Of a stretch of 64,000 nucleotides of DNA, positions 944-56,816 are shown piece after piece. Source of the DNA: Minisyncoccota bacterium (GTDB taxonomy: Bacteria > Patescibacteriota > Minisyncoccia > Phycocordibacterales > UBA1006); the NCBI GenBank assembly GCA_021734445.1, contig JAIPIY010000001.1, positions 110,814 through 174,813 of the forward strand, written 5' to 3'. The notes beneath the pieces were generated by a model. That model was not told the origin of the DNA, did not search any database, and saw nothing but the letters and a program-made list of their open reading frames with translations. The translations under genes and the position numbers were made by a program. Every line of letters starts with the position of its first letter. Within the stretch, counting starts at the first letter, position 1.

Positions 944-2257
944 TTACTTGTGTACATGAAATAGCTGCTGTATCTTTTCGAAAGACATGGGCATTAATTT
1001 CGTAAGCAGATCTGCTGGTACACGTTCTCCATTCAAAAGATCATATTGACTAAATCCCCTTCTGGATTCAAGCTCAGAAACATATTCTGTGCGAACACTG
1101 ACCATCTTTTGAGACAAGATTTTATTCTGATGAATTAATCCCTGAGGAAAAATAGTGGGATACCGATTTTTAGATTCGGCAATCCTTGTATTCAGAAAAC
1201 CTTTCTCTGTTGATATATCCAGCAACGAACGAACCGAATTTCTCAACTCACGTTCTGCGCAAGATGGAAGAAATCGGAATAATCCCCCTGGAACAATCGT
1301 GTGTCGAAGATGCTTTGGTAACCATGGAAATGTTCCACTGTTTTGCAAAACTTCGAACATCCGAGAAAAGACATTCCGAATTGGTTTACCCTTGAGATAA
1401 TGAATCATGTCAATACCAGAAACGGTGAATGTATCCCCAACCAATACTGAAGGTTCAGCAATTCCCCGTTGCACCTGTTGCCAATAACATGTAATGGCAT
1501 CAAGCATAATCAGGGATTCTTTGATCGGCAAATACCCGCCAATTTCCAATACTACATCTTTTTCGATCATGTATTTGTGACTCTTTTTCATTTCCAAAAA
1601 AGAATCTATCACATCAAAAGACGTAGCTGGTGAAATTTTAGTAACACACCCCATAGGAGAAACAATACGATTAAAAATCCCTGTTTCATACCCCTGCAAG
1701 ATGTATTCCTGATTCGTGATGATAATCTTGAAGAAGTCCCGTACAAATGGAAAATCCAAAAGATCTGCATCAAGAATCACATTTTGATATCCAAGAGCTT
1801 TTTTCTTTGCAATATGGTGCACATGCCCCAGATTGGAACATTGTGCAAATTGTCTGGCCGAAATAAAACCATTGGATAATACTTTTTCGGAACTCAATTG
1901 CAAATATGGAGATAAAACCGCATCATGCTGAATAGCACAATAATGCTTACTGCCACCTTCGAAAATTGTTTCCGGTTCATCAGCGGTATCTCGTACCGAT
2001 TGATTCCCCATGTAATCACAAATGGTGACACCCATGTGTGGATACATGTTATTACTGGGCCAATGAAGCCCAATGTGCGGTGTAGCAAGAATAGACACAC
2101 CTAGAGATGTAAGATGAGAGATATCATCCCCACAAAGCTGGTAAGAGCTACCACCCCAGGGATTTAATCTATCAAAACCAATGATGTGAAATCCAGATTC
2201 CGAAAGAGAAGGATTTTCTTGTTTCCACATTTTCTGCAAAATTTCATGCGTTTTCAT
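944..2257 (-). CDS. Metallophosphoesterase-like protein (calcineurin-type motifs GDDISH ... LGHVHH); function unknown.
   Basis: 437-aa ORF. Motif pattern GDxxH / GNx / GHxHH is read by eye; there is no partner gene in an operon. Confidence 0.4.
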   Translation of the reverse strand: MKTHEILQKMWKQENPSLSESGFHIIGFDRLNPWGGSSYQLCGDDISHLTSLGVSILATPHIGLHWPSNNMYPHMGVTICDYMGNQSVRDTADEPETIFEGGSKHYCAIQHDAVLSPYLQLSSEKVLSNGFISARQFAQCSNLGHVHHIAKKKALGYQNVILDADLLDFPFVRDFFKIIITNQEYILQGYETGIFNRIVSPMGCVTKISPATSFDVIDSFLEMKKSHKYMIEKDVVLEIGGYLPIKESLIMLDAITCYWQQVQRGIAEPSVLVGDTFTVSGIDMIHYLKGKPIRNVFSRMFEVLQNSGTFPWLPKHLRHTIVPGGLFRFLPSCAERELRNSVRSLLDISTEKGFLNTRIAESKNRYPTIFPQGLIHQNKILSQKMVSVRTEYVSELESRRGFSQYDLLNGERVPADLLTKLMPMSFEKIQQLFHVHK

Positions 2258-2513
2258 GATGTTTGAATTTAGGTGATGTTTATGAAATTGTTAAAAAACA
2301 AAAACCAAACCCCAGATTGCTCGGGGGTTTGTTGGTATCAATAAATTTTTTGAGAAATTATATTTTATTCAGACAAACAAAACCCCGAGCGGAAAGCCAG
2401 ATAGGGCGGTACAAGAAACACATGTTTGTGTGAATATGACTATTCATAATATATATACTATAGAAACGAAGTTTTTTGTCAAGAAAAATTAAGACAACAA
2501 AAATCTATCTTAT

Positions 2514-2816
2514 TTATAAAAATACAGAAACAATTAGAAGAACTGTTCCTATAAAAAGCCAGATAGCACCACGAATTGGAGATTCTAAATCAGAACGCGT
2601 TTCAATTTCCTTATATTCACCACCCTCAAACAAAGACATCGCGTCTTGTTTATTTTTAATATTCACCAATAAGCCAACAAAACGATTCCACACAGAAGGT
2701 TTTTTATACAACCATTGCTTTGCAATTAACATGGAAATATCTCCAGATGCAAATGTTATTGAGGCAGCTGATAAACAAAGTGTTCCTATTATAATTATCA
2801 AACTTTGAATATTCAC
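2514..2816 (-). CDS. Small membrane protein, hypothetical.
   Basis: 100-aa ORF with hydrophobic N- and C-terminal segments, co-oriented with its neighbours. The overlapping + strand ORF 2476-2808 is Lys-rich and less plausible. Confidence 0.35.
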   Translation of the reverse strand: MNIQSLIIIIGTLCLSAASITFASGDISMLIAKQWLYKKPSVWNRFVGLLVNIKNKQDAMSLFEGGEYKEIETRSDLESPIRGAIWLFIGTVLLIVSVFL

Positions 2817-2843
2817 AAAAAGAAAAGACTTTAGTTTTAAATT

Positions 2844-3734
2844 TCACGCAGAAGCTGGAGTGCAAACATTAAAACCTGTACCGCCAACACAAGAGATTAT
2901 ACTAAATCCACTATTTATTTCTGTAGACCCAGATTCATTCTCAGCACGAATAATCACCTTATAATTAAAACCTTTTGGTAAAGTAGTTTGAATCTCGTGA
3001 TTTCTACTATTACGTTTTTTAGACTCAAGAGAAGAATATATCTTTGAATCATTACCTTGGTAAATTTTTATAGAACTTTCCGAAGGATAATTTGTTTTCC
3101 AAGAAATTATACATTTTTCTGCATTACAAGAATGATTAACCTCATCAATTTTTAAAGGTGTTTGCTTTGTAGAAAAGGTAACGCGCTCTGTTTTCCAAGA
3201 ATTATCTGCAAGGGCTGTTATATTACCCATATAAGGAATATCACTTTCTAGTCCACCAATATTAACAACGTGATATTTACCAACCCCTTTTTCAGAAAAA
3301 TAAGTATCCCCTTCAATCATTATTTTTGATTCAGAATCTATTGTTGTTTCCCATTTTATTTTTACTGAATACGCTTCGGCATCTGCTTCAATATTCCTAA
3401 TTGAAAGAGTATTTAAATTCGATTCTACTGGCGTTACGTTAGAAGCTACAATAGGGGTAATTATGGGTATAACAGGAGGCTGATAATCTGAAACTAGATT
3501 AATCTTTTTCTCAGTTTCTTTTGATAGAATAGGTGTTTTTTCTTTATCTATAATAACCTTTGATTCCACGGGAGCAACTTCTGCCTCTATCACCACTTCA
3601 TGTTTAGATTCTGAAACCTTTTTATCCTTCTTAAACCAAGAAAATGGGTTCCACCATACGGCAAGTGTTATACTTGGGTAAATTAATACAACTAAAAATA
3701 CAATCAAAATAATCTTTTTATATTCATTTTTCAT
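2844..3734 (-). CDS. Secreted/membrane-anchored hypothetical protein.
   Basis: 296 aa with an N-terminal TM/signal anchor (IILIVFLVVLIYPSITLAVWW). ATG confirmed at 3732-3734. Confidence 0.5.
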   Translation of the reverse strand: MKNEYKKIILIVFLVVLIYPSITLAVWWNPFSWFKKDKKVSESKHEVVIEAEVAPVESKVIIDKEKTPILSKETEKKINLVSDYQPPVIPIITPIVASNVTPVESNLNTLSIRNIEADAEAYSVKIKWETTIDSESKIMIEGDTYFSEKGVGKYHVVNIGGLESDIPYMGNITALADNSWKTERVTFSTKQTPLKIDEVNHSCNAEKCIISWKTNYPSESSIKIYQGNDSKIYSSLESKKRNSRNHEIQTTLPKGFNYKVIIRAENESGSTEINSGFSIISCVGGTGFNVCTPASA

Positions 3735-3764
3735 AATACATTAATTAAACCAATAAACCAGTAG

Positions 3765-3784
3765 TGGGTGACTATCGGGAATCG
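3765..3784. repeat. 20-nt direct copy of the tRNA-His 3' end (identical to 3960-3979), followed by GTCAC.
   Basis: Exact match tgggtgactatcgggaatcg at both positions. The copy begins at T-loop position C56 of the tRNA. Confidence 0.75.
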
Positions 3785-3833
3785 GTCACTCTTGTGGATT
3801 TTCTTTCAGAAAATCTCACGCCATTGACCTCCA
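3785..3833. repeat. Diverged copy of the conserved tRNA-downstream element (GTCAC ... GATTTTCTGAAAGAAAATC hairpin).
   Basis: Starts with gtcac and contains the AATTTTC/GAAAATT-type hairpin, as in the copies at 7309, 10093, 10355 and 15621. Confidence 0.45.
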
Positions 3834-3900
3834 CTCGCCCGCCAGGCTACGCCTGACTTTGTGCGGGCTCGGTTCGATTCCCTCTCGAAAACTTTGTTTT
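3826..3900 (+). other. Degenerate tRNA-like fragment (T-arm consensus GGTTCGATTCC, no complete cloverleaf).
   Basis: ctcggttcgattccctctcg resembles the tRNA-His T-arm, but I cannot build the stems. Confidence 0.25.
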
Positions 3901-3924
3901 CTCGTAGTCACTTTTAGACATAAC

Positions 3925-3952
3925 AAAAACGCAAGCAAAAGCCTGCGTTTTT
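3925..3952. terminator. Bidirectional hairpin terminator (AAAAACGCAAGC aaaa GCCTGCGTTTTT).
   Basis: 12-bp stem with one G.T mismatch and T-runs on both strands, immediately 3' of tRNA-His. Confidence 0.5.
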
Positions 3953-3961
3953 GTTATGCTG

Positions 3962-4034
3962 GGTGACTATCGGGAATCGAACCCGAATCAGAGGCTCCAC
4001 AAACCCCTGTGTTAACCGTTACACCATAGTCACC
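3962..4034 (-). tRNA. tRNA-His (anticodon GTG) with an encoded G-1.
   Basis: Cloverleaf built by hand: acceptor GTGACTA/TAGTCAC with an extra 5' G pairing discriminator C73, anticodon loop TTGTGGA, T-loop TTCGATT. Confidence 0.85.
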
Positions 4035-4105
4035 AATATAAAACACAAGAAAATATCTCTCCTGTGTTGCTTTGTTATACCAAAAAAATCAAATAAAAGC
4101 CAGCC

Positions 4106-5113
4106 CTAGAAAGAAATCTTTTTTCTAGCAATCAGATTTTCCAAATACAACCCTGCGATAGAAGCCAAAATAACAATAGCTAAATACACCAAAAACAATC
4201 CCCAGTATGACCAATTTGATTCTCCTATTTTTACCAAAACAAACATAACATACCATGACACCACTGAAACACTACCAAAAATAAAAACTATCTTTCGCAT
4301 CATTTCAAATGCATGTTTTTCGCCTGTGATATGTGGCTGATCAAAAGGAATTTCCGATAACTGATGACCCACCAATAGATTTACCATGACGCTATTCATA
4401 ATCAACACCAATGTAATAGTCATCACCATTAACATACTACTGGATTCCAATATTGCAGGACCAAATGATGCGTAATATCCGATTCCTACCAAGACAAACA
4501 ATCCCAGGATAAACCACAACAACTGATAGAAAAATCCAATAGTTCCTGCTTCACCTTTTGAAACATGATGATCATGCAATGAACGAAAGAAATACAAATC
4601 TGTCAGGGTCGCAATACCCACACCCAAAGCCAACGCCAACGAATATCCCACAAATAAGATATGTTGATAGGTTGCCAAAATTTCAACCAAACTAAATGGA
4701 AATGAGAACAACGAAATAACAAAAATAAATAATGAAATAGTTGCCGACCCCAAACACCATGAACACCATTCACGCAAAGCAAAAGCCTGGATAGCAACCA
4801 AATACACTGAAAACAACATTGCTAATGTTGTAATGACAATAAATACAAACATCACGCCTGGTGTACCCAAACTAGGCATAATCATGATAGTCGCATATGC
4901 CAAAGCAATCAGAGAATAATAGAAAATTCCCATCCATTCTACTGGTATACCCAAGAAATTTGAAAACCGGCTGTAAATTACCGTATCGCAATTTGCATCC
5001 AAAGGACAAATCATCTTTTCATGTTTTGCTTTTTTGTGTCGAATAAAACTGGCTAAAAAGAATCCTGCAAACGCAAGAAAAACAAGAACAATTTTTGCAA
5101 CTAATGGTGACAT
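4106..5113 (-). CDS. VKOR (vitamin K epoxide reductase) family membrane protein with an extra C-terminal multi-TM domain.
   Basis: Cys pair in the loop (CPLDANCD) and an in-membrane CSWC CxxC motif; many TM segments. Confidence 0.55.
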   Translation of the reverse strand: MSPLVAKIVLVFLAFAGFFLASFIRHKKAKHEKMICPLDANCDTVIYSRFSNFLGIPVEWMGIFYYSLIALAYATIMIMPSLGTPGVMFVFIVITTLAMLFSVYLVAIQAFALREWCSWCLGSATISLFIFVISLFSFPFSLVEILATYQHILFVGYSLALALGVGIATLTDLYFFRSLHDHHVSKGEAGTIGFFYQLLWFILGLFVLVGIGYYASFGPAILESSSMLMVMTITLVLIMNSVMVNLLVGHQLSEIPFDQPHITGEKHAFEMMRKIVFIFGSVSVVSWYVMFVLVKIGESNWSYWGLFLVYLAIVILASIAGLYLENLIARKKISF

Positions 5114-5147
5114 ATGATGAGATTATATACTAAAAACACCTTCAAAG

Positions 5148-7235
5148 CTAGAATTCCGTTACCGGCAAAGGTTCCGTTTCAGTTTCTGTTTCTGTTGGCA
5201 CATTTTCATCATTGCTAACAGATTGTTTTAATTCTGGAAATAAAATTTGAACATCTTCTGGAATAACTGAGACAATTTGATTATTAGCCAACGATGTTAA
5301 TTGCAAAGTATGCTGTACAGACATGGTATCAAAATTACTGGATCCTGAAAAACCATATGGGATAAATGTATTCTCTCGTAGAGATACCAGCCCGGTAAGA
5401 TTTTTTACGGTACGCATAAAATCAGTTTCTAATATTGTTACCATTTCACCAAAAGATTGTATCCTCATAGGATATTGATACATGGGAAGATTCATAACTG
5501 AATGTGACACACCAGGATTTTCTAATACGATAGATTGCAACCCATCTGAAACAGTGTTCACAACACCAGCTATTATTTGAACACTGTCTGGTAATGGTGT
5601 TTCTTCAGGTATGGTATGTATTACCGGTAATCGATACCAAATATCTTTTTGTATATTCAAGTGAGTAAGAATTTCTAGTGATGCTTCTCCGAAAGATACA
5701 TAAGTAAATTCTTGATCAAGTATAAATTTCATACGAACACGCTCCATACCTGATTCACGCGGTATCTCCAACGTAATATTTCCTTCTGATTGTATTCCTG
5801 TATCCCCATTACGTAACCACCCATCCACAGATAACAATGATTCTACAGGTTGTATTACAGGAATTTCTGCGTTCAAATCTTCGGTCACTATTTCTTCTCC
5901 TGCTACTTGCCCTGTTGTAACATCTGAAGATTCTGTTATTTCAACCTCTCCTTGTTCATCATTCATAGGAAAAAACAATGACTGAAATATATCTTTTTCT
6001 GATGTAATACTACCCACATAAGAAAACTGCATTCCTGAATTTGCGGGTAGAATATTTTTCAACGAAGCAAAAGCTTGTTCCGCCAAAGGAACTTCAATCA
6101 CAGTAGTTTCTTCAACAGGCGTTTCTTGATTCAAAAAACCAGAAAACAGCCCCTGTGTATATCCATACAATCCAAAACCAAATATTGCCAACACTAATAA
6201 AATAATAACCGTGATACCTATAATTTTTTGTACAGGATTATGTTTTTTGATAATTACACCATCATCATGTATTTCAGTATCAGGCGTAATTGCCATACCT
6301 CCAAAAGCTGGTGAAGCCTGGGGTGGATTAAAGGATGCCCCTGGATTAACCACAGGAGAAACTGGTTCTGATTTTGTATACCATTCTTGTGCAAAATTTT
6401 GTGCTGGTTTAGGTGCTATCACAGGATCTATAGACTTTGGTGCAATGTTTGATTCAGATGTTTTCATTACCGGTACTGATTCTTTTTCTTGAACCATACC
6501 CACAGGAACGATGGTTGGTTCTGGAATATAAGCCGATGATTGCATTGTATTTTGCATAACCGGCTGCTGTGCCAGTGTTTCTTTTACTGCAATAGATGCG
6601 GGTTGTATACGTGGATCAAAAGAATCAACTGGCTGTACAGGAGGCATCACAACAGGAGTTTTTTCTTCAACAACTGATTGCAAAGGTTCTTCTGCTGGCA
6701 TTTCTTTTACTGGATTTTCAAATGAAATACCTGCAATTTCTTCAGTAGGAGAAGACAAAGAAACATCATTCATTTGTTTTTCATTTAAACTATCAGGAGT
6801 ATTTTGTGTAACAGATTCAATCCCCGCTTGTTCCAAAGAATCATTATCCAAATCTAATACAGTAGACATTTCTTCTTGGGTTTCTGGAATATCTTTCTGT
6901 ACCAATGGAGAATGATCTTTTTCAGAAGAAACAGAAACATCTCCACCTAAATCAACATTTACAACGGGTGCTTGTTCAACCTCTTTGGATTCATACGATG
7001 GTTTTTGTGATGAAATAACTTCATCTTTGTTTTCACCTGTTTTTATTACAGATGATTCCATGGACGCCATAGGGACATCTTGTTCTGAAACACCTACTGA
7101 TTTGAATACTTCATCAACATCATCATGTGTCCATCCACCATATGCGAATAAATCTTTACGAATAATATCAAGGTGATGACCTTTTGCGATACGTAATTGA
7201 ATATAATTTACAAGTTCTGGTGTAATCATACACAC
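5148..7235 (-). CDS. Hypothetical single-TM protein with a long low-complexity (E/P/S/V/Q-rich) linker and a C-terminal extracytoplasmic domain.
   Basis: 695-aa ORF with a central hydrophobic segment IIGITVIILLVLAIFGFGLYGY. Confidence 0.45.
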   Translation of the reverse strand: MCMITPELVNYIQLRIAKGHHLDIIRKDLFAYGGWTHDDVDEVFKSVGVSEQDVPMASMESSVIKTGENKDEVISSQKPSYESKEVEQAPVVNVDLGGDVSVSSEKDHSPLVQKDIPETQEEMSTVLDLDNDSLEQAGIESVTQNTPDSLNEKQMNDVSLSSPTEEIAGISFENPVKEMPAEEPLQSVVEEKTPVVMPPVQPVDSFDPRIQPASIAVKETLAQQPVMQNTMQSSAYIPEPTIVPVGMVQEKESVPVMKTSESNIAPKSIDPVIAPKPAQNFAQEWYTKSEPVSPVVNPGASFNPPQASPAFGGMAITPDTEIHDDGVIIKKHNPVQKIIGITVIILLVLAIFGFGLYGYTQGLFSGFLNQETPVEETTVIEVPLAEQAFASLKNILPANSGMQFSYVGSITSEKDIFQSLFFPMNDEQGEVEITESSDVTTGQVAGEEIVTEDLNAEIPVIQPVESLLSVDGWLRNGDTGIQSEGNITLEIPRESGMERVRMKFILDQEFTYVSFGEASLEILTHLNIQKDIWYRLPVIHTIPEETPLPDSVQIIAGVVNTVSDGLQSIVLENPGVSHSVMNLPMYQYPMRIQSFGEMVTILETDFMRTVKNLTGLVSLRENTFIPYGFSGSSNFDTMSVQHTLQLTSLANNQIVSVIPEDVQILFPELKQSVSNDENVPTETETETEPLPVTEF

Positions 7236-7308
7236 AGTGTACCATATTTATTTTTTATTTTTTACAAAAGGTGTGTAAAAGATTTAAAACAACAAAGGAG
7301 AAGGCTTG

Positions 7309-7358
7309 GTCACAAATAATTTTCCTACAGAAAATTTTCGCGACCCCGCCTCGTCTGC
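7309..7358. repeat. Conserved tRNA-downstream element copy (3' of tRNA-Leu), preceded by a degenerate copy of the tRNA-Leu 3' end (about 7291-7308).
   Basis: gtcacaaataattttcctacagaaaattttcgcgaccccgcctcg, near-identical to the copy at 10355. Anchored to ORF 7306. Confidence 0.6.
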
Positions 7359-7391
7359 CTTGGGCATAACTCCGACCTTCAAGATCCTCAC

Positions 7392-7413
7392 GCGAGCAAA
7401 GCAGTTTGCTCGC
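7392..7413. terminator. Hairpin (GCGAGCAAA gcag TTTGCTCGC) 3' of tRNA-Leu.
   Basis: 9-bp perfect stem. Confidence 0.4.
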
Positions 7414-7438
7414 TTCCTGCGCACAGATGTTCACATTG

Positions 7439-7522
7439 TGCGCAGGAGAGGACTTGAACCTCCACGCCCTTGCGGGCACATCCACCTCAAGGATGCTTGT
7501 CTACCAGTTTCAACACCTGCGC
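7439..7522 (-). tRNA. tRNA-Leu (anticodon GAG), long variable arm.
   Basis: Acceptor GCGCAGG/CCTGCGC, anticodon stem CATCC/GGATG, loop TTGAGGT, variable arm TGCCCGCAAGGGCG, T-loop TTCAAGT. Coordinates anchored via ORF 7306. Confidence 0.85.
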
Positions 7523-7596
7523 AATGTTTTGATTATACATTTTTCGATGATTTTTACAATTTAAAAACCCTGACCATTTCGGGTAGGGTTTTTAAA

Positions 7597-8109
7597 TTAT
7601 TCAGAATCTTTTTGTGTATCTTCTGTTGTTACTACTGGTTCTGATTCTACTGTTGATTCTTCTGGAGCTTCATCAGTTGGTTCATCTTCCGGAAGGATGG
7701 TTGTCAAAAATGGAATAAGATTTCGCATTTTTCGTTTAATATCACGGGCAACCTTGGTTCGAACGTAATATAGTTTAGATCGTCTTACTTTTGATCGACG
7801 TACTACTTCTATTTTTTCAATAGATGGTGAATATAATGGGAAGATACGTTCTACACCTACACCACTGGCTACCTTGCGAACAGTAAAAGTTGCACCAGGT
7901 TCTGTTCCATGTTTTCGCGCGATTAAAAGACCTTCAAAAAGCTGAATACGGGTTTTTCCTTTTTCTTCAATTTTTACATGCACACGAACAGTATCCCCTG
8001 CACGCAGGTCAATATTTTTTCGTTCATGTATTGATACGGGCGTAAAAGCCACAGTTGTACTTGCTGTCATAACGTGAGAAACTATAACATATCCAATTTT
8101 GTTTTGCAA
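7597..8109 (-). CDS. rplS: 50S ribosomal protein L19 with an N-terminal and an acidic C-terminal extension.
   Basis: [31 protein letters not shown]...[21 protein letters not shown] is typical L19. Confidence 0.8.
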
Positions 8110-8822
8110 TAGACCAAAGCATCTTCAAAATCTTTTGGAAAAGGAGCTTCAAAATGGACCCTTTCTCCTGATAAGGTAATAAAATCTATTGCACGCGCAT
8201 GCAATGCCTGACGTTTAAAACCTAACAGATTTGGTCGGTTTGGTGCATATAATGTATCCGCTAACATAGGATGTTGTAGATATTGCATATGCACGCGCAG
8301 TTGGTGGGTTCTTCCTGTTTCTGGCAATAAAACAATATAAGAAACCAAATCATCCTGTAATCGATATTTTGTTCGATAATGAGTTACCGCCTGACGCTCT
8401 TGTCCACGTTTTCCCCTGCCGGCACTATAACGACGAAAATCACGCGGGCTACGCGCAATAGGTGCATCAACGGTCCCTGCATCTTTTTTTACTATACCGT
8501 GCACAAATGCATGATATTCTTTGGTGATCGTATGATTTTGGAATTGTTCTTTGAGATGGAGAAACATTTCAGGAGTTCGTGCAACAATCAAAATTCCCGA
8601 AGTATCTTTATCCAAACGATGCACAATACCAGGACGATCGATAACCGTTCCGTCTTTTAATCTCATGGGTTCTCCTACACCAACAATGTCAGGAAATTGT
8701 TCCACCAAAAAATCCACCAATGTTTTTTCATCGGTGTGTCCATCCGCGTGCACCAACAAACCAGCGGGTTTATTGATGATGAGGAAATGTGGGTCGGTGT
8801 GAAGAATATTTAGATATTTCAT
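8082..8822 (-). CDS. RluA-family pseudouridine synthase.
   Basis: [15 protein letters not shown] catalytic motif. Start moved to the internal ATG MKYLNIL (8822); the ORF-track start at 8984 would overlap the divergent gene. Confidence 0.75.
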
Positions 8823-8844
8823 ATAATATGTTATAGTATACAAT

Positions 8845-9549
8845 ATGAATATAAATTTTGATATAGAAAAATCCCCTATTAAAAAGGAGACTATCAGAAA
8901 ACCTTGGTCTGATGAAAATATTGGGTTTCTCTTAGGAAACATGCACATATTAAAAAACAAAGAGAAAGCGCTCAATGATCCCAATAATTACAGAGAAAAA
9001 AGCATCGAAACATTTAACGAGCTTGATACTTTCCTTAGAGACAATGGGGGCACTCATTATGAAAATATTAATGATTTATATAATCAATATAACAGTACAA
9101 CAAAACCGCTTATTGTAAGAAGAGAAGATCCGATACGTATTGTTAACCTCATAAAAGGTGATTCTATTAAAATGGAATTTGATCCAGAAGTTGTTGGTGA
9201 TAGAGGGGATAAATATGCTAATTCTGCATTATGGCCATATGGACCTATTAATAAAACAAGTGGAATTGCAAATGCATTTCTTGAAGGTCGAGGTGCCGCT
9301 GGACCAATAGTGATCGTTGCTGGATACACACACAACCAAGATCATATGACAATTGAAGACCCTCATGAGCACATGGCAGAAGTTGGGACAATTCAAAGAC
9401 ATGCAATAAAAATCCTTTCAGGAGAAATAGAGACCAAAGATCTAGAATTTCTTATAGTCAGGGCACCAAAAAAGTTTTTTGATCCAACAAAACTAAAACC
9501 AGAAGAACAACATTCAGAGCAAATTTTTAGAGGGTATAAATTTAAATAA
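8845..9549 (+). CDS. Hypothetical protein.
   Basis: 234-aa ORF with no motif I recognise. Confidence 0.4.
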   Translation: MNINFDIEKSPIKKETIRKPWSDENIGFLLGNMHILKNKEKALNDPNNYREKSIETFNELDTFLRDNGGTHYENINDLYNQYNSTTKPLIVRREDPIRIVNLIKGDSIKMEFDPEVVGDRGDKYANSALWPYGPINKTSGIANAFLEGRGAAGPIVIVAGYTHNQDHMTIEDPHEHMAEVGTIQRHAIKILSGEIETKDLEFLIVRAPKKFFDPTKLKPEEQHSEQIFRGYKFK

Positions 9550-9578
9550 AAAAATAGGCTGAAATGATGTAAATCACC

Positions 9579-9923
9579 TCAGCCTTGTTTGTTTTTTGTC
9601 ACTAATACATCAACACAAGAAACGCACGTAAGTGCACCGGGTACCAATCTTAACCTGGCGACCGGTATATCCTGAGAGCATTTTTTACAAATACCATATT
9701 TCCCATCTTTTATAGCATTCAATGCTTCGATGAGAAATGGGGTAACTACCTGTGTTTTTCTTTGTTGATATGGAGTCAAATCTCCTAAAGTAAGAATCTG
9801 CTCTGCAATAAGATCTTTATCATTATAACGATCAATACGAGCTTGAATAATTTCTTTTTGAATTTTTACAAAAGAAGTCCAACCGGGACCATTTCTCACA
9901 AGAATTTCTTCTTTTTCCTCCAT
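9579..9923 (-). CDS. DksA/TraR-family C4 zinc-finger protein.
   Basis: C-terminal CKKCSQDIPVARLRLVPGALTCVSC four-Cys finger; ~114 aa. Confidence 0.6.
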   Translation of the reverse strand: MEEKEEILVRNGPGWTSFVKIQKEIIQARIDRYNDKDLIAEQILTLGDLTPYQQRKTQVVTPFLIEALNAIKDGKYGICKKCSQDIPVARLRLVPGALTCVSCVDVLVTKNKQG

Positions 9924-10039
9924 GGGTGTACAGTTTTTATTCTTTGATATTATACTTTAAAATAATAATAAAGTCAATACCATGCATATTATCTTATTTA
10001 AAACTTATATTTAGAGAAAAACATCATCATGGCAAAAAA

Positions 10040-10059
10040 GCGACCACCTTCGTGGCCGC
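10040..10059. terminator. Hairpin GCGACCAC cttc GTGGCCGC followed by a T-run.
   Basis: 8-bp stem with one mismatch, between the DksA-like gene and the tRNA cluster. Confidence 0.35.
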
Positions 10060-10067
10060 CTTCTTTG

Positions 10068-10092
10068 TTTTATGTGCGCGATGAGGGACTTG
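10068..10092. repeat. 25-nt direct copy of the tRNA-Val 3' end plus 4 trailer nt (identical to 10238-10262), followed by GTCAC.
   Basis: Exact identity confirmed through two overlapping ORF-track frames (10072 and 10215). The copy starts at T-loop C56. Confidence 0.85.
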
Positions 10093-10140
10093 GTCACGAA
10101 TATTTTGCTTTACAAAATTTCTCGACCCCGACTCGGCGAC
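10093..10140. repeat. Conserved tRNA-downstream element copy (3' of tRNA-Val).
   Basis: gtcacgaatattttgctttacaaaatttctcgaccccgactcggcgac. Confidence 0.6.
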
Positions 10141-10244
10141 AATTTTGTAAGACAAAATCGTAAACCGCCTCCGTCTTTCAAGTCCCAATCTCTTGGTAAA
10201 ATACAAAAGCCCGAATGCTTTGCATCCGGACCTTGTATTTTATG

Positions 10245-10317
10245 TGCGCGATGAGGGACTTGAACCCCCGACCTTCTCGGTGTAAACGAGCTGCTCTACC
10301 AACTGAGCTAATCGCGC
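10245..10317 (-). tRNA. tRNA-Val (anticodon TAC).
   Basis: Acceptor GCGCGAT/ATCGCGC, D-arm GCTC AGTTGGTA GAGC, anticodon loop TTTACAC, T-loop TTCAAGT. Confidence 0.85.
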
Positions 10318-10354
10318 TATGTTTTTATTATAAAGAAAAATCTTTACTCCGTGT

Positions 10355-10399
10355 GTCACAAATAATTTTCCTAGCGAAAATTTTCGCGACCCCGACTCG
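10355..10399. repeat. Conserved tRNA-downstream element copy (3' of tRNA-Arg-TCT; the flanking tRNA-end copy is eroded).
   Basis: gtcacaaataattttcctagcgaaaattttcgcgaccccgactcg. Confidence 0.6.
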
Positions 10400-10447
10400 C
10401 CTGTGTTCCAAGTATTCACACTACGGCTCCGTCCGCACACTTCGCTC

Positions 10448-10469
10448 GAATGTAAAGAAATTTACATTC
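10448..10469. terminator. Hairpin GAATGTAAA gaaa TTTACATTC, 3' of tRNA-Arg.
   Basis: 9-bp perfect stem. Confidence 0.4.
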
Positions 10470-10481
10470 TTTACGCTCGTG

Positions 10482-10553
10482 TGCCCCCGCTAGGAATCGA
10501 ACCTAGATTAACGGCTTAGAAGTCCGCAGTTCTATCCATTGAACTACAGGGGC
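10482..10553 (-). tRNA. tRNA-Arg (anticodon TCT).
   Basis: Acceptor GCCCCTG/CGGGGGC, D-arm GTTC AATGGATA GAAC, anticodon loop CTTCTAA (one A.G mismatch at the stem base), T-loop TTCGATT. Confidence 0.7.
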
Positions 10554-10621
10554 ATCTTACCCTATCAGACCGTATACACGGTACCTAAAACGAAGGACCA
10601 ACAAAGTATAGCATATTTCGT

Positions 10622-10933
10622 TTATTGGTCAATATATTCGTTTGCCACCGGACGCATATCATTACGCTCTTCGAGAATTTCCAAAACTTTGTCCAAATTA
10701 TCTTGATGCAACACAGGAACGATCTGATCTGAAATAATTTCTTCTTCTACATGGATACGATCAGATACCACATAATAACGATATACAATTGCTGTAATCC
10801 CGAGGATTATAACGAAGCCAATAAAAAATCCTACTACAGACCATTGCCAAACAATAGTTGGTCGAAATCGTGAACGAATTTTTTTAATCGTTTCCTCAAG
10901 AGTGTTTATTGCTGTATCTGTTTTTATTATCAT
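10622..10933 (-). CDS. Small single-TM protein, first gene downstream of pilO (possible pilus assembly accessory).
   Basis: 103 aa with one TM (WSVVGFFIGFVIILGITAIVY). Confidence 0.4.
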   Translation of the reverse strand: MIIKTDTAINTLEETIKKIRSRFRPTIVWQWSVVGFFIGFVIILGITAIVYRYYVVSDRIHVEEEIISDQIVPVLHQDNLDKVLEILEERNDMRPVANEYIDQ

Positions 10934-10937
10934 ATTT

Positions 10938-11459
10938 TTATATCTGAGGAATAAAACTTGTCATACGACCAGTAATCACCAATCTCCACTGATCAATAAC
11001 TGGATCCTCCCCCTGAAACGGAGCAACAGAAACCTGATCAAGATCAATCACATAGGGTAATACTTCAAAGCGATGCAAGGCACGTGCGATGTTTTCAAAA
11101 TCCCCTCGAAAATCTACCCCCATCAATAAATGTGGTTCTTTTTCCTGTATGATATCCAACTGTGAAAGAGACAACACTACACCTTCTTCTGATGCCAGTG
11201 TTTCTAATTCTTTTATCAAATCAACGATATGCTGTTCTTCGATATGCATATTGTTTAATTGACTTTCAATAGAATCAATATCGCGTGTCATAATTCGTAA
11301 CGATTCAATTTGTTTTGTTTTTTGTTGCTCTTGTGCAAATTGTTTTTGAATTTCTTGGGTTTGTATTACAGTTTCTCGCACTTGTATCACCAAAAAAATA
11401 AACCCTGCAAGGATAAGAAGGCAAAAGATGCTACTGGTAATAAGGAGAGAATGTTTCAT
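10938..11459 (-). CDS. pilO: Type IV pilus assembly protein PilO-like.
   Basis: N-terminal TM plus coiled coil. Position after pilM/pilN. Confidence 0.5.
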   Translation of the reverse strand: MKHSLLITSSIFCLLILAGFIFLVIQVRETVIQTQEIQKQFAQEQQKTKQIESLRIMTRDIDSIESQLNNMHIEEQHIVDLIKELETLASEEGVVLSLSQLDIIQEKEPHLLMGVDFRGDFENIARALHRFEVLPYVIDLDQVSVAPFQGEDPVIDQWRLVITGRMTSFIPQI

Positions 11460-11460
11460 A

Positions 11461-12021
11461 TTATTGTGGTTCAGCTAATATTGCTGATAAAGAAAACGTC
11501 ACATCGTTTCCCGCTACAAAATGTGATACTGGAACAACAACATCAAGAAACGCGGGGTGATTTTTTATCGTTTGTATAAAAAATAATAAATCTTCTCGAG
11601 TCTGTGCAATACCACGCATAAACACAGTACCAGGGTTATCTTCTGTTGATTGAACAATACGTATTTCTTGTAATGCAATTCCTGCTGATGCTTTTTCACC
11701 CAGAACTATAACAATATCTGAAATGGTCGGCTGTTGAAAAGTAACCAAAGCTTTTTTTGTTTTTGTATTCACATCACGGATTCTTTTTACAATATCGCGA
11801 TATTCTTGATTTTCATCTTGATCCAATAACGTTTGCAAAGAAGCTTCTGCAATAGAGTAATTAACCCGTGCATACATATATAATCCCGAAAAAAGAATCC
11901 CCGCACACAACAACAGCGCCATACCCATATACAACACAATCATAACCGAACGTTTTTTCATTTCTCGATCGATTTGTTTTTTGTATTCTGTTGTTAAAAT
12001 ATTAATAGTCATATATTTCAC
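11461..12021 (-). CDS. pilN: Type IV pilus assembly protein PilN-like.
   Basis: Single TM after a short cytoplasmic N-terminus, then a periplasmic coiled coil. Overlaps the pilM stop. Confidence 0.5.
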   Translation of the reverse strand: MKYMTINILTTEYKKQIDREMKKRSVMIVLYMGMALLLCAGILFSGLYMYARVNYSIAEASLQTLLDQDENQEYRDIVKRIRDVNTKTKKALVTFQQPTISDIVIVLGEKASAGIALQEIRIVQSTEDNPGTVFMRGIAQTREDLLFFIQTIKNHPAFLDVVVPVSHFVAGNDVTFSLSAILAEPQ

Positions 12022-13102
12022 CTAATGCCAAACCCAAAGCAGTGGCATATGATAACGATTCTTCTTGGGATAATGCTGGAATATCTTCATCAAAAGACAA
12101 AATATTTTTCCATACCGAAGCTACCGTAACGGGCATATGCATCGTCGATGATAAATATTCTGCAAATCCAGGTAATAACGATCCTCCTCCCACCAAATAC
12201 ATTCCATCAATAGTTCCAGAAACTCCTGGTAATTTACCATGGGCGGTATGCCAATATAGGTAGTGTTTATTTATTTCATCACGCAATGCACTAATATTAT
12301 TAATCACGGTAAAGAAATAATCTTGGTCATCCGTATTGTGTAATAATCCTCGTGATTGTTTTATGGTTTCTGCTTCTTCTTTTGAAATCTGAAAATATTT
12401 TGCGATGGCTTCGGTTAATGAATCAGATCCAATATCCAATGTCGATGTAAACACCGTAGCGCCAGAAACGATAATAGAAAAACCTGATCGATTCTTTCCA
12501 TAGTCAACCAAAATATACGTTCCTGCATCATGTCGAGGAACTGTAACCCGTGATAATGCATGCACCTCTAATTCCCCCACTAATGGACGCAATCCAGCTG
12601 ATAGAAAAGCACGCGTATAGGTTTCAATAATTTCTCGTGGAAATGCAGTAACGCTGATTAATAACGAATCCTCGTGTTCACGAAAAATTTCATATCCAAA
12701 AGAAATATCGGATTCTGGCAAAGGAACATGTTCTTCTATCTGCAAACGAATAGCTTCTTCTAAATGAGGTAAAGCTTTTTTAGGTAACATAATCGAAAAA
12801 ACATACGCATGTTCTTCAGGTAAAGAAAACCGAACCCAACTGGCTTTTGTTTTTTGTTGAATAGAACGCAATGCCGAAGTAAAAGCAGGAATATCATGAA
12901 CAACACCTGAAACAACAATATCTTTTTGGAGAGCATGTTCTCCATATTCTCCTAATTTCAGAGATGTATTTTTTCTTTTCAGGGTAGCAAAACGTAATGT
13001 GTCATCAGAAATATCAATAGACAATGCAGGCATACGTGCAAACGCAGGTGCAGGGAAAAGTTTTTGAATCACGTGAGAAAACTTCATAGATATAGTATAC
13101 AC
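12002..13102 (-). CDS. pilM: Type IV pilus assembly ATPase-fold protein PilM.
   Basis: 366 aa with an actin-like fold signature (LSIDISDDTLRFATLK ... MYLVGGGSLLPGFAEYL). Confidence 0.65.
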   Translation of the reverse strand: MYTISMKFSHVIQKLFPAPAFARMPALSIDISDDTLRFATLKRKNTSLKLGEYGEHALQKDIVVSGVVHDIPAFTSALRSIQQKTKASWVRFSLPEEHAYVFSIMLPKKALPHLEEAIRLQIEEHVPLPESDISFGYEIFREHEDSLLISVTAFPREIIETYTRAFLSAGLRPLVGELEVHALSRVTVPRHDAGTYILVDYGKNRSGFSIIVSGATVFTSTLDIGSDSLTEAIAKYFQISKEEAETIKQSRGLLHNTDDQDYFFTVINNISALRDEINKHYLYWHTAHGKLPGVSGTIDGMYLVGGGSLLPGFAEYLSSTMHMPVTVASVWKNILSFDEDIPALSQEESLSYATALGLALGEIYDY

Positions 13103-13120
13103 GAAATATCTCTCTTGGGT

Positions 13121-13699
13121 CTAGTTTTTTAAAACAAAATAAAGAATTACCATACACACAAATAATATAGTTATCATGCGCAGATGTTTTACATAATGCG
13201 ACAATACGATTCGCGCTCGATCTCCAAATAAAAATACAATATACGCTTCGATATAAAAACGTAATCCACGACCCAACACTGAACCCAAAATAAACGGTAT
13301 CAAAGGGACCTGAAAAAATCCGCCTAAAATGGTAAATAATTTAAACGGAATAGGGGTAAACGCTGTGATAAACATGGTGACAAAAGTAGCTGATGCAAAC
13401 AAATGTGCAATCGTTGTGATATAATTTTTTGTATCATAAAACTGCACCAATGATTCAGCAAAACCTTCAAAAAGAAAAAAACCCAACGCATAACCAGCCA
13501 GCCCGCCCAAGATAGAAGCAACAGTGGTAATACCTGCATATCGCCACCATGCGTGTTTATTAGCAAAAACCATAGGTATCAGTAATATATCAGCTGGAAT
13601 CGGGAAAAAGGAACTTTCTATAAAAGATACAATCGCCAAAACCCATACCGAAGTACGTGATACAAGCCAATTTTGTACTATATGCAACCACCGATTCAT
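13121..13699 (-). CDS. DedA/VTT-domain family membrane protein.
   Basis: FIESSFFPIPADILLIPM ... GRGLRFYIEAYIVFLFGDR are typical DedA motifs. Confidence 0.65.
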   Translation of the reverse strand: MNRWLHIVQNWLVSRTSVWVLAIVSFIESSFFPIPADILLIPMVFANKHAWWRYAGITTVASILGGLAGYALGFFLFEGFAESLVQFYDTKNYITTIAHLFASATFVTMFITAFTPIPFKLFTILGGFFQVPLIPFILGSVLGRGLRFYIEAYIVFLFGDRARIVLSHYVKHLRMITILFVCMVILYFVLKN

Positions 13700-13703
13700 A
13701 TAA

Positions 13704-14051
13704 TTATCGAACCACGGTACCGGGTGCCACAGATGTTTCTGGAACTAAAAATACTGGTTTTCCATCGATACCATCCACCGCCATCAACATACCATTACTG
13801 GTCACACCGCGAATATCACGTGGTTCCAGATTAGTTACATACAATAATTGTTTCCCAACCAATAGTTCATATTCGGGATAATATTCTCGAATTCCAGATA
13901 CAATCTGTCGCAAGACTGAATTCCCTTCGTCATCTTTTTCTCCAAAATCAATCTCACAACGCAATAACTTATCAGACCCCTCGACCGGTTCAACTAATTT
14001 CACAGTACCAATTTGCATGGTTAATTTTTTAAAATCATCGTAGGTAATCAT
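13704..14051 (-). CDS. tRNA-binding domain protein (CsaA/Trbp111/EMAP-like OB fold).
   Basis: LLVGKQLLYVTNLEPRDIRGVTSNGMLMAVDG. Confidence 0.6.
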   Translation of the reverse strand: MITYDDFKKLTMQIGTVKLVEPVEGSDKLLRCEIDFGEKDDEGNSVLRQIVSGIREYYPEYELLVGKQLLYVTNLEPRDIRGVTSNGMLMAVDGIDGKPVFLVPETSVAPGTVVR

Positions 14052-14076
14052 AGGGTTTATAGTAAAGGTTAATCTA

Positions 14077-14493
14077 TTATTTTTGTTTGTCTAAATATCT
14101 TTGTAACATAATCGCAGCTGCTAATGCATCGTCTTCGCCAGTTGGCTTTTTTGCACGACTACGTGACACATTTTTTTCTGGAACCAAAGACTGCAAAGCT
14201 GATCTGGTAGTAAAATCTTCACGTTGAGTATCAATAGGAATCTGCACCAAAAATGACATTTGCCCTATGAAATCTCGCACGTCATCCATAATCGCATTAT
14301 CGTTTCCTTTTGCATCTTTTGATTCTCCTATAATGATTTTTTCTACTCGTTCATCTGATACAATTTTTGCAATCACATGATGAATATCTGCTGTTGTTGG
14401 AATCACTTTGTAAGCAAAAGCCATAGAACCATCATCGTCTGACAATGCTAATCCTATTTTCTTTTTTCCATAATCAATTCCCAAATACCGCAT
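14077..14493 (-). CDS. ruvX: Holliday junction resolvase-like YqgF/RuvX.
   Basis: MRYLGIDYGKKKIGLALSDDDGSMAFAYKVI; 138 aa. Confidence 0.75.
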   Translation of the reverse strand: MRYLGIDYGKKKIGLALSDDDGSMAFAYKVIPTTADIHHVIAKIVSDERVEKIIIGESKDAKGNDNAIMDDVRDFIGQMSFLVQIPIDTQREDFTTRSALQSLVPEKNVSRSRAKKPTGEDDALAAAIMLQRYLDKQK

Positions 14494-14494
14494 A

Positions 14495-15262
14495 TTATTC
14501 AGAAGCTACCGTAATAGGTAACATACATTCATGAGATTGCCCTTCGTCTGGACCAGCAGGATTATTATCAGTAAAAATTAACTGTGCGTTCATATCTGCT
14601 GGAATAGATGATAATGCAGGCACAACCAAAGAGAATGGTTTTGGATTTCCATTCATCCAATCAACAGACAGACTCATCAAAACAGGTCCAGCCAATACGG
14701 TACCCTGCATATCTTTGATCACTACATGACCTGCTTCCCCTTCGAATACAGTCCAATCCTGAGGGTTTGATGTAGGATGAATAAATCCTGAAACTTCTAA
14801 CGGAAAAGAAAGATTTTCTAATGTTGTTGGTTGTGCAATAGCCAACCCTAAACAAGCTTGTGCTTCGTTTTCATTTTCAAATGTGTATTCTGTTTCTTGA
14901 ATTTTCGCATGTAATGCCTGTCTGGTCAGTAGATCCACAATACCAGTTTGTGGTACACCTGCATCCAACTGAAATGCCAACACTGCATCTTCGGTATACG
15001 AATAATAATGCCCGTTTGGTTCCCCATTCAGATATCCATGATCGATAAGAAATTCTTGTAATTTTCGAATCTCTTCGTTGTTCTCCATTCCGTACTGTAA
15101 ATTTTGTGTAAACACAGGAACAAAAGATTCGTCCAATTCTTCGAAATCAACTTCGGAAATAACTTGAACCGGTTCGTCTTTTGATTTTGTATATACTGCG
15201 ATACCAATACCCACGAGAACGATTATAAACAAGCTAAAGAAAAATTTAAATGGTGTTGTCAT
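14495..15262 (-). CDS. Secreted protein with a peptidoglycan-binding (PG_binding_1-like) domain.
   Basis: N-terminal TM/signal; motif YSYTEDAVLAFQLDAGVPQTGIVDLLTRQAL. Confidence 0.5.
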   Translation of the reverse strand: MTTPFKFFFSLFIIVLVGIGIAVYTKSKDEPVQVISEVDFEELDESFVPVFTQNLQYGMENNEEIRKLQEFLIDHGYLNGEPNGHYYSYTEDAVLAFQLDAGVPQTGIVDLLTRQALHAKIQETEYTFENENEAQACLGLAIAQPTTLENLSFPLEVSGFIHPTSNPQDWTVFEGEAGHVVIKDMQGTVLAGPVLMSLSVDWMNGNPKPFSLVVPALSSIPADMNAQLIFTDNNPAGPDEGQSHECMLPITVASE

Positions 15263-15430
15263 ATAAAAAAATAAGTGATAAAAACGGGATTAACCTTGAA
15301 TATAGTATAGCATATATACACTCACCTGAAAAAATTGCAGACTTTTGCTGTATATGATAGGATGCTTTTGTATACATATGTTATACAAAGACCTATCTTA
15401 TAAAGGCAATAATGCTTTTAAAAAGATATT

Positions 15431-15517
15431 GGAGGAGTGGCAGAGAGGTCGATTGCACTTGTCTTGAAAACAAGAGTCTGGGGAACCGGACCGTGAGTTC
15501 GAATCTCACCTCCTCCG
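15431..15517 (+). tRNA. tRNA-Ser (anticodon TGA), type II.
   Basis: Acceptor GGAGGAG/CTCCTCC+G, anticodon stem CTTGT/ACAAG, loop CTTGAAA, long variable arm, T-loop TTCGAAT. Anchored via ORF 15412. Confidence 0.85.
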
Positions 15518-15620
15518 CAACGACCCGAAAGGGTGATGTCTATTACCCGATTGGGTTGTCGGCGCGTGAGAATGTGAGATTCGAAAGACGGAGGCGCGAA
15601 GCCGATTCGCAGAATCGTTG

Positions 15621-15664
15621 CCGAGTCAGGGTCGTGAAATTTTGCGTAGCAAAATATTCCTGAC
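15621..15664. repeat. Conserved tRNA-downstream element copy (3' of tRNA-Ser), ending in CTGAC.
   Basis: ccgagtcagggtcgtgaaattttgcgtagcaaaatattcctgac. Confidence 0.6.
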
Positions 15665-15685
15665 CGAATCTCACCTCCTCCGCAA
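15665..15685. repeat. 21-nt direct copy of the tRNA-Ser 3' end (identical to 15500-15520), beginning at T-loop C56.
   Basis: Exact identity verified through the ORF 15412 frame. Confidence 0.85.
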
Positions 15686-15731
15686 TTAGTATTTAGTATC
15701 GGAGTGACCCAAGAGCTTATAATCAATAAAC

Positions 15732-33259: not shown

Positions 33260-33266
33260 CATAATA

Positions 33267-46741: not shown

Positions 46742-46767
46742 ATGGTTGTAGTATAGCATGTTACTAT

Positions 46768-46801: not shown

Positions 46802-46805
46802 ATAT

Positions 46806-56787: not shown

Positions 56788-56816
56788 ATGAGAATAGTAT
56801 AGCATGATATCCAAAT

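Follow-up and report, generated by a model that had tools for sequence, protein, structure and literature searches.

What lies in the 175 nucleotides (nt) that separate the 3' end of a tRNA-His gene from an exact 20-nt copy of that same end? The question is raised by positions 3765-4034 of a 64,000-nt stretch of a Minisyncoccota bacterium (contig JAIPIY010000001.1), and this whole stretch is called the window here. The initial annotation of the locus, made from the letters alone, had listed a tRNA gene, a hairpin, a tRNA-like fragment, a diverged copy of a conserved element and the 20-nt duplicate. Our answer, which we hold with moderate confidence, is that 3765-3911 is an intact copy, of the subfamily that we call H-type, of a gene-less Patescibacteria element of about 110-150 nt, a mobile cassette that is placed behind tRNA genes and whose arms are copied from the tRNA. 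The element family is widespread in Patescibacteria and apparently undescribed.

Anatomy of the module behind tRNA-His

Two covariance models are used throughout: R1, a model of the canonical core that was trained without the His copy, and R2, the H-type model, whose training set includes the His copy of the window. X denotes positions 57-76 of tRNA-His, X' the inverted arm, X2 the direct copy and P0 to P3 the helices. The parts of the locus are the following.

3961-4034, minus strand: tRNA-His (GTG), from ARAGORN (3961-4033), the Rfam tRNA model (60.2 bits) and the sequence.
3920-3957, minus strand: intrinsic-terminator-like hairpin directly 3' of tRNA-His, from the sequence and the minimum free energy (MFE) fold.
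3905-3911, minus strand: X'a, GTGACTA, the reverse complement of the tRNA-His acceptor 3' strand TAGTCAC, with which it pairs in the fold.
3883-3904, minus strand: P0, a small hairpin GAAAAC/GUUUUC, from sequence and fold.
3871-3882, minus strand: X'b, GGGAATCGAACC, the reverse complement of tRNA-His positions 52-63, from the sequence and the covariance-model alignment.
3784-3870, minus strand: H-type core, a three-way junction (112.8 bits with R2, in whose training set it is; 17.9 bits with R1, E = 0.009).
3765-3784, minus strand: X2, which directly repeats the 3' end of tRNA-His from C56/G57 up to the CA that follows the discriminator, from the exact repeat.

Read on the minus strand, the tRNA is thus followed by the hairpin, GTGACTA, the small hairpin, GGGAATCGAACC, a core of about 87 nt and GATTCCCGATAGTCACCCA. 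X', the three-way-junction core and X2 are one module. The core consists of CCGAG, helix P2 (3837-3868), the junction GAGUGGA, helix P3 (3784-3829) and the terminal GUGACC, and its MFE fold has a z-score of -3.7. X'b is the 5' strand of helix P1, and the first 7 nt of X2 are its 3' strand, while P0 splits the inverted copy into an acceptor part and a T-arm part. This arrangement of P0 recurs in the Leu module of the window and in the loci L036 and L044.

The exact 20-nt copy of the tRNA end that had been annotated at 3765-3784 was recovered: GATTCCCGATAGTCACCCA (3783-3765) together with the last C of GACC matches 3960-3979, these are the only two such sites in the window at up to 3 mismatches, and the chance expectation is 0.01. 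No open reading frame (ORF) lies between the two repeats. X' can pair with X or with X2, and so two mutually exclusive helices share one strand, as in a riboswitch or attenuator. The fold of 3760-3985, in which X pairs with X', has a free energy of -102 kcal/mol and a z-score of -10.

The encoded G-1 of the tRNA-His gene was also confirmed, as base 4034 is a G, which can pair with the discriminator C73; the discriminator is followed by CA instead of CCA. The hairpin noted behind the gene is real and spans 3920-3957; its stem of 18-20 bp is GC-rich at the top and comes with an A-tract and a T-tract. The long X:X' fold-back has this hairpin at its tip, and a homologous hairpin stands behind tRNA-His in L064 and L093. 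The hairpin of the window is absent from the list of a simple terminator scan because its T-run sits within the extended stem.

As a separate observation, CA directly after the discriminator, and never an encoded CCA, is found at all six tRNA genes of the window (3959-3961, 7436-7438, 10242-10244, 10479-10481, 15518-15520 and 33260-33262), and ...GCACA is the end of many tRNAs at the related loci as well. It could be a processing signal or a piece of the element's target.

The tRNA-like fragment

The tRNA-like piece of the initial annotation, at about 3826-3900 with a GGTTCGATTCC T-arm, had been proposed as a second, decayed attachment site, beside what was taken to be the most eroded of the modules and perhaps a picture of an older insertion. 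The string is real: GGTTCGATTCCC, the plus-strand reading of 3871-3882, is a perfect 12-nt T-arm string, and TAGTCAC occurs 22 nt further on, as a degenerate plus-strand tRNA or pseudogene might have it. However, when a cloverleaf was sought in 3826-3911, ARAGORN called only the six true tRNA genes of the window, and the Rfam tRNA model (RF00005) gave no match on either strand at E <= 10. GTGACTA and GGGAATCGAACC are exact reverse complements of the adjacent tRNA-His, and therefore the "T-arm" is the module's left arm, which copies the adjoining tRNA in inverted form, and not part of a second tRNA. Both strings belong to a module architecture that is conserved behind many tRNAs, and the stretch is made up of the inverted arm and the P2 helix of the same module. 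Nor is the module eroded: its helices are intact with covariation, its R2 score is high (the copy being in the training set) and its 20-nt repeat is perfect, which makes it better preserved than the Leu and Arg(TCT) modules of the window, whose repeats have decayed. A tRNA pseudogene that served as a decayed attachment site beside an old module is rejected as barely credible. Apart from the misread inverted arm and the wrong reading as an eroded or older insertion, the initial annotation is largely correct.

Sister modules and two subfamilies

The module is one of several in the window with a common conserved element and, at their end, a duplicated tRNA 3' end, as had been annotated. They stand behind five of the six tRNA genes (His, Leu, Arg(TCT), Val and Ser), each on the strand of its tRNA, and only tRNA-Arg(GCG) at 33188-33260 is without one. 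Besides the His copy, four canonical modules are present.

7298-7390, minus strand: canonical module of tRNA-Leu(GAG), X2 decayed (R1, 70.8 bits).
10344-10447, minus strand: canonical module of tRNA-Arg(TCT), 3'-end type (R1, 70.6 bits).
10068-10189, minus strand: canonical module of tRNA-Val(TAC), direct repeat of 24-25 nt (R1, 88.2 bits).
15573-15685, plus strand: canonical module of tRNA-Ser(TGA), direct repeat of 21 nt, repeat family D14 (R1, 88 bits).

Their common parts are a hairpin-bearing spacer, X', the conserved core and X2. The canonical X' is a short antisense of the tRNA T-loop and the 3' strand of the T-stem; the core reads GACGGAG, a variable hairpin, CGAGUCGGGGUCG-N-GAAA, a hairpin and AUUyNUGACC; and X2 is a direct copy of the tRNA from position 57 on, with the lengths listed above for Ser and Val and decayed in Leu. 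The arms of the Arg(TCT) module match the extreme 3' end of the tRNA (X' GUGUGC, X2 CACAC), and this is called the 3'-end type. All five copies of the window fold as a three-way junction in which P1, formed by X' and X2, closes P2 and P3.

R1 matches the His copy on the minus strand at 3774-3885 over its full length (model positions 1-108), and this is the only untrained R1 match in the window with E < 0.1. A diverged copy of the element had been placed at 3785-3833; the copy exists, but that interval covers only part of it. The R1 score is weak because the His copy belongs to a sister subfamily. R2 scores the independent orthologue in L123 at 82.5 bits and also detects canonical copies, that of Val (33 bits, E = 5e-7) and that of Ser; the two subfamilies are therefore homologous. 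The His copy has the junction GAGUGGAGGUCAAUGG..UGAGAU of the H-type, covarying P2 and P3, and arms that match the upstream tRNA. Its 24-nt junction string GAGTGGAGGTCAATGGNNTGAGAT is found exactly in 22 metagenome loci and in the closest relative of the window. In 19 junction matches with an upstream tRNA on the same strand (Ile, Glu, Leu, Gln, Val, Asp or Arg), the layout is tRNA, trailer, terminator, X', core and X2. The His module is an intact member of a separate, well-conserved H-type subfamily.

The structures were evaluated against slid controls, in which the pairing partners were moved by 1-3 columns. In 48 canonical copies, 91.8% of the P1, P2 and P3 cells are paired compared to 31-51% in the controls, and the covariation score is 0.416 compared to at most 0.10. 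Clean swaps are seen: 23 copies have C-G and 21 have A-U as the outer P2 pair, and at one P3 position 30 copies have A-U and 18 have U-A. One G.U pair of P3 is invariant. A candidate tertiary pair also covaries, between the base after GAGKC and the base in UCG-N-GAAA (G-C 19, A-U 11, C-G 4, unpaired 13). When the invariant pair is excluded, G.T mismatches number 54 in canonical copies and A.C mismatches 23, an excess which speaks for the tRNA-sense strand as the one that folds, be it RNA or single-stranded DNA. For the H-type, 93.4% of the cells are paired in 21 copies compared to 30-48% in the slid controls, and P2 covaries heavily.

By eye, the 3' strand of the P3 internal loop (CCACGAGAGUGACC), at 3784-3800 and in all H-type copies, resembles the sarcin-ricin loop consensus (ACGAGAGGACC), and tandem G.A motifs recur in P2 and P3. 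It is possible that the CCACGAGAGUGACC loop and the G.A motifs are protein-binding sites. The by-eye likenesses to the hammerhead (CUGAUGA-like strings), to the twister (AAGCC...GUGGAGG) and to the sarcin-ricin loop were dropped as identifications, as no model backs them.

Arms derived from the local tRNA

What is portable in the module is the core, and the arms are copied from the tRNA gene at the site and then decay. Several details of the arms bear this out. X' extends 3-5 nt past the junction and complements positions 52-56; X2 is without these nucleotides, and therefore X' is templated from the tRNA copy itself. The non-palindromic T-loop TTCAAGT of tRNA-Val appears as ACTTGAA in X', and hence X' is a true inverted copy. 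In L123, tRNA-His has A57 for G57, and the matching change is present in X' and X2 alike. In many H-type copies, X' runs on to complement the acceptor strand and even the trailer, and the tRNA tail, the terminator and X' then make up one long imperfect palindrome.

X2 differs from the tRNA at 24 P1 positions in 35 type-A modules. At these positions X' pairs with the tRNA base in 19 cases and with the X2 base in 11, and with the X2 base alone in only 4. The apparent covariation of P1 therefore reflects templating from different tRNAs followed by decay; compensatory selection on P1 was considered and rejected, as the arms look templated and then decay. X2 starts at T-loop position 57 or, in the second type, at the 3' end, where it is 4-6 nt long and has no preceding TTC; decay of X2 past 8 nt is frequent. 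The right junction is fixed (GACC|R57, or the 3' end), and the left side and the length of the duplication are variable.

Gain, loss and stacking between relatives

Relatives of the window were found through the flanking VKOR protein, with 93%, 88% and 83% identity, of which L120 (93%) is the closest. In L120 the tRNA-His gene is identical and the next gene follows directly, with no hairpin, module or repeat, so that the site is empty. At the same gene, L123 has one orthologous H-type module and L126 has two in tandem. The tRNA-Val locus of L120 reads tRNA, TAAAA, CAAAG... and terminator. In the window, the same sequence is split by 139 nt (spacer, X' and core) and a 24-nt duplicate of AAGTCCCTCATCGCGCACATAAAA, a clean insertion of 163 nt relative to L120. 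The empty tRNA-His site and this insertion agree with the initial view that the modules behave as insertions. Instead of that canonical module, L120 has an H-type module after the tRNA-Val terminator.

From the T-tract to GACCAAGUCC, the H-type copies behind tRNA-Val and tRNA-Leu of L120 are alike over about 140 nt except for 1 mismatch. Their X2 segments are specific to each locus, and the X' of both fits Leu best, which speaks for a recent jump from one tRNA to another with a similar T-arm. At the tRNA-Leu locus, where the downstream DNA is the same in both, the module is canonical in the window and H-type in L120. At tRNA-Leu of L126, three different modules stand in tandem: one of an odd type with GTTC at its end, one H-type and one canonical. 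An intact 19-nt AAGTCCTCTCCTGCGCACA closes each of them, and after the last one come the ancestral trailer and terminator. Elsewhere the duplication reaches 51-64 nt, with the terminator included, and 201-nt units stand in tandem in L140 and L131. Some near-identical P2 hairpins are found behind different tRNAs in different genomes. Over short evolutionary distances, copies are gained, lost, replaced and stacked in tandem.

Three further observations concern these loci. The odd module of L126, at 5160-5300, represents a third kind, with the antisense arm GCGGACUUGAA and the end GTTC|AAGTCC instead of GACC, and neither R1 nor R2 matches it. The genes directly downstream of tRNA-His are unrelated among the close relatives, with BLASTP E = 1.1 for the first ORFs (compared regions: window 944-3734, L120 11193-13145, L123 11428-14590 and L126 8965-10976); the downstream genes differ at tRNA-Val likewise, and therefore tRNA 3' ends mark variable regions in this lineage. 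Finally, a 22-nt GC-rich palindrome, CCTGCCTRCCGGCAAAGGCAGG, is a second small repeat (L120 3860-3881 and 7466-7560, and the X2 regions of L137 and L141). It interrupts the P3 hairpin of the Arg(TCT) module of L120, is present in several copies within a decayed duplicate of the 5' half of tRNA-Leu that precedes the genuine tRNA-Leu, and lies inside X2 of two metagenome loci.

Distribution and database searches

A 21-nt degenerate pattern of the core was found at 119 or more loci in a species-representative genome set. Among the matches listed, nearly all are from Saccharibacteria, Paceibacterota, Nomurabacteria, Moraniibacteriota and relatives; two matches, in Flavobacterium and Pyrinomonadaceae, were rejected as chance. 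Also among the matches listed, 85 of 123 (about 70%) lie 43-142 nt downstream of a tRNA on the same strand, and the tRNAs that precede core matches belong to at least 31 anticodon species. Among 87 tRNAs that had not selected the loci, only 5 are followed by a strong canonical copy.

In the scanned region 3700-15800, Rfam 15 has no family for the element at gathering score or at E <= 10, and no match at E <= 10 was obtained to its self-cleaving ribozymes, group I and II introns, omega-RNAs or Y-RNA-like RNAs. No description of the element was found in full-text literature; publications that deal with TIGR-Tas or with the group I introns of Patescibacteria tRNAs proved unrelated. A recurrent neighbour protein was sought by clustering 898 ORFs within 4 kb of the modules, and none was found, with any family at no more than 12 of the 119 loci; the clusters are housekeeping only (BipA, RluD, L19, IscS-like, PolA and others). 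Pfam and NCBIfam searches gave no nuclease, recombinase or reverse transcriptase among the ORFs of the window, large unannotated ones included. There are no true copies of the element in 2.9 million viral contigs, where the scans gave one false match in a coding region and zero for the H-type, and a phage origin was rejected.

Comparison with known systems

Like phages and integrative conjugative elements that recombine attP with attB in tRNA genes, the module leaves the tRNA intact, with a direct repeat behind it that reaches from the T-loop or 3' end to a point past the gene, in the His module the exact 20-nt repeat; tandem stacking at one site and variable adjoining gene content are also shared. 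It differs in that it carries no integrase or cargo (no ORF in the 175 nt) and no phage-borne attP was found in the viral contigs, the insert is about 110-200 nt, an inverted target copy and a conserved, covarying three-way junction are added, and the core serves at least 31 tRNAs.

The anatomy is also like that of the CTX-phage attP(+) site (XerCD) and of integron attC, where inverted and direct copies flank a centre and one strand can fold to mimic the duplex target. The integrated CTX-type layout of target copy, rest, inverted copy, central region and target copy is seen in all type-A and H-type copies, and the arrays of L126 are cassette-like as in integrons. However, the target is a tRNA gene and not dif or attI, and the centre is a conserved structured core rather than a variable spacer; the likeness is purely anatomical.

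MITEs (miniature inverted-repeat transposable elements), repetitive extragenic palindromes and bacterial interspersed mosaic elements (REP/BIME), and the palindrome-associated elements (PATEs) derived from IS200/IS605 are short, gene-less, hairpin-rich intergenic repeats with many copies per genome that use a protein in trans, as the module may. Their arms, however, are element-specific terminal inverted repeats, whereas those of the module vary with the tRNA from which they are copied, and the duplication is 5 to more than 60 nt (about 5-64 nt) rather than a fixed short target-site duplication. The module is moreover strictly tied to tRNA 3' ends in a strict orientation. For an IS200/IS605 PATE or TnpB omega-RNA, the presence of a duplication does not fit, and neither an Rfam match nor a TnpB-like neighbour was found.

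TnpB omega-RNAs, Cas12 guides and the homing CRISPR RNA, matched to tRNAs, of type V-K CRISPR-associated transposons resemble the module in that a scaffold is followed by about 20 nt that equal a tRNA segment after a T-rich motif (TTC). In the module, by contrast, no effector gene is nearby, no Rfam omega-RNA matches, and the segment that looks like a guide often decays and has an internal antisense arm as its pairing partner. Three-way-junction ribozymes (hammerhead, twister-sister) and retrozyme or viroid-like repeats share the three-helix junction with conserved junction nucleotides, a closing helix formed with a flanking "substrate" and tandem genomic units of about 150-200 nt, but the core is unlike the hammerhead, twister, pistol, hatchet, hairpin and hepatitis delta virus models (no Rfam match at E <= 10).

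Mobile cassette or functional RNA

If the element is mobile, it would act as a miniature integrating cassette at the tRNA tail. On one strand, X' would pair with the tRNA-derived segment into a duplex that mimics the tRNA gene 3' end and is closed by the core, and recombination of this folded site with a tRNA gene would give tRNA, spacer, X', core and X2. One conceivable route is recombination of a hairpin-forming single strand with the tRNA gene, anatomically like CTX-phage attP or integron attC. Another would be recombination through the 20-60 nt of identity following DNA uptake, and another is serial template switching, with fold-back at the terminator hairpin, copying of the tail to the T-loop, the donor core and re-entry at position 57. 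All three would yield the layout seen, and the enzyme would have to be encoded elsewhere in the genome. A bolder version, which we regard as speculative and rather unlikely, is a self-propagating, retargetable nucleic-acid parasite of tRNA genes: a hairpin or rod-like single strand of about 150-200 nt, possibly circular and possibly RNA, whose core is a ribozyme or a recombination or priming site, and which is rebuilt at each tRNA by copying the tail both ways (terminator fold-back to the T-loop, entry at C56|R57) with no transposase of its own.

Several points weigh against the mobile cassette. The element has no linked recombinase, reverse transcriptase or nuclease, and no free (circular) form was seen. 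The junction nucleotides are almost invariant phylum-wide, which one would not usually expect of a purely selfish repeat and which suits a functional RNA just as well. Only in the canonical subfamily is G.T clearly in excess over A.C. The nearest neighbours of about 30% of the modules, in other genomes, share the tRNA amino acid, compared to 8% by chance, and this could reflect vertical inheritance rather than spread. Lastly, the tRNA-Val module of L120 stands after the terminator, yet no second terminator copy follows its X2, and therefore a simple single-crossover model needs an extra deletion.

The chief competing reading is a non-coding RNA with a function linked to tRNA expression. Such an RNA would be transcribed by read-through or from its own start, and its X' would pair either with the tRNA 3' half and trailer or with X2. 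It would act as a switch or quality control for read-through transcripts, as a decoy or processing signal, or as a self-cleaving ribozyme with its cutting site at GACC|R57, and the duplication would be there to provide the pairing partners. We regard it as a serious possibility, though not the likely one. What keeps it in play is that the unpaired nucleotides of the junction are extremely conserved across the phylum, and the covarying helices, the invariant G.U pair and the G.T excess on the tRNA-sense strand of the canonical subfamily, the thermodynamically strong alternative pairings of X' with X and X2, and the constant placement of modules on the tRNA strand speak for it too, as do the tandem G.A motifs seen by eye, which are typical of protein-binding RNA. 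It is weakened by the terminator-like hairpin that usually stands between tRNA and module, by the sporadic distribution (5 of 87 unselected tRNAs, and none at tRNA-Arg(GCG) of the window), and by the presence or absence, replacement and tandem stacking among close relatives. In addition, P1 shows little compensatory evolution and its arms simply decay, and no Rfam family matches, known self-cleaving ribozymes included. The consistent position or universal presence of a riboswitch was not found either: a gene start, a terminator or another tRNA lies downstream. The two readings are compatible, because a selfish element may depend on the RNA activity of its own core. An orphan guide RNA would take the core as scaffold, X2 as a 20-nt 3' guide and the T-loop TTC as a motif like a protospacer-adjacent or transposon-adjacent motif, with the effector elsewhere. 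The scaffold with 20 nt after it, the type-A duplicate that begins exactly after TTC, and a retargeting that tracks sequence similarity (the Leu-to-Val copy of L120 retains its Leu-matched X') would suit it, but no TnpB-, IscB- or Cas12-like ORF is found in the window or near modules, the omega-RNA families of Rfam do not match, the X2 of the 3'-end type measures only 4-6 nt and lacks the TTC, X2 frequently decays, and X' would sequester the guide; we consider it improbable. Still less probable are attL/attR scars of ordinary integrase islands or prophages in the tRNA 3' end, later deleted down to about 150 nt. A direct repeat from the tRNA T-loop or 3' end to just past the gene is reportedly the classical signature of an integrase site, as in the described sublocation classes. 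Such a repeat is present, and the genes downstream of tRNA-His and tRNA-Val differ between relatives. Nevertheless, one structured core of about 100 nt recurs behind at least 31 tRNA species, neither integrase nor cargo lies between the repeats, the viral contigs hold no true copy, near-identical 140-nt copies stand at two loci of L120, and separate deletions would not each leave the same GACC|R57 junction and helices.

Patescibacteria have tiny genomes with very little non-coding DNA, and a highly conserved structured element of about 110 nt nevertheless recurs behind their tRNAs, five out of six in the window. If it is the mobile cassette that we favour, tRNA tails serve this gene-less unit as attachment sites that are portable, and it duplicates its target in both orientations, a layout found in none of the repeat families compared (MITE, IS200/IS605 PATE or omega-RNA), and it would account for the variable regions beside tRNA genes in these genomes. 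As a functional RNA, it would be an RNA family that spans the phylum, is absent from Rfam and is coupled to individual tRNAs physically and by sequence. On either reading it is a marker of strain-level variation and a target for transcript-end mapping and ribozyme assays, and caution is due in annotation, as the module arms imitate tRNA fragments and att sites.

Other observations in the window

ORFs of 92-112 codons run over tRNAs and modules at 7306-7644 (plus), 10215-10493 (plus) and 15418-15726 (minus). They are almost certainly spurious and could mislead automatic annotation.

Degenerate arrays of a 51-nt (17-codon) repeat are found at 45213-45616 and 55298-55821, within the minus-strand ORFs 42773-46879 and 54370-56871. 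These two ORFs have no Pfam or NCBIfam match and are probably repetitive surface proteins. A 61-nt repeat with 72% identity (CATATG..TAGTATAGCATG...) and a terminator-like hairpin at its end is located at 46739-46799 and 56785-56845, at the upstream ends of both large repetitive ORFs, which suggests a duplicated gene cassette.

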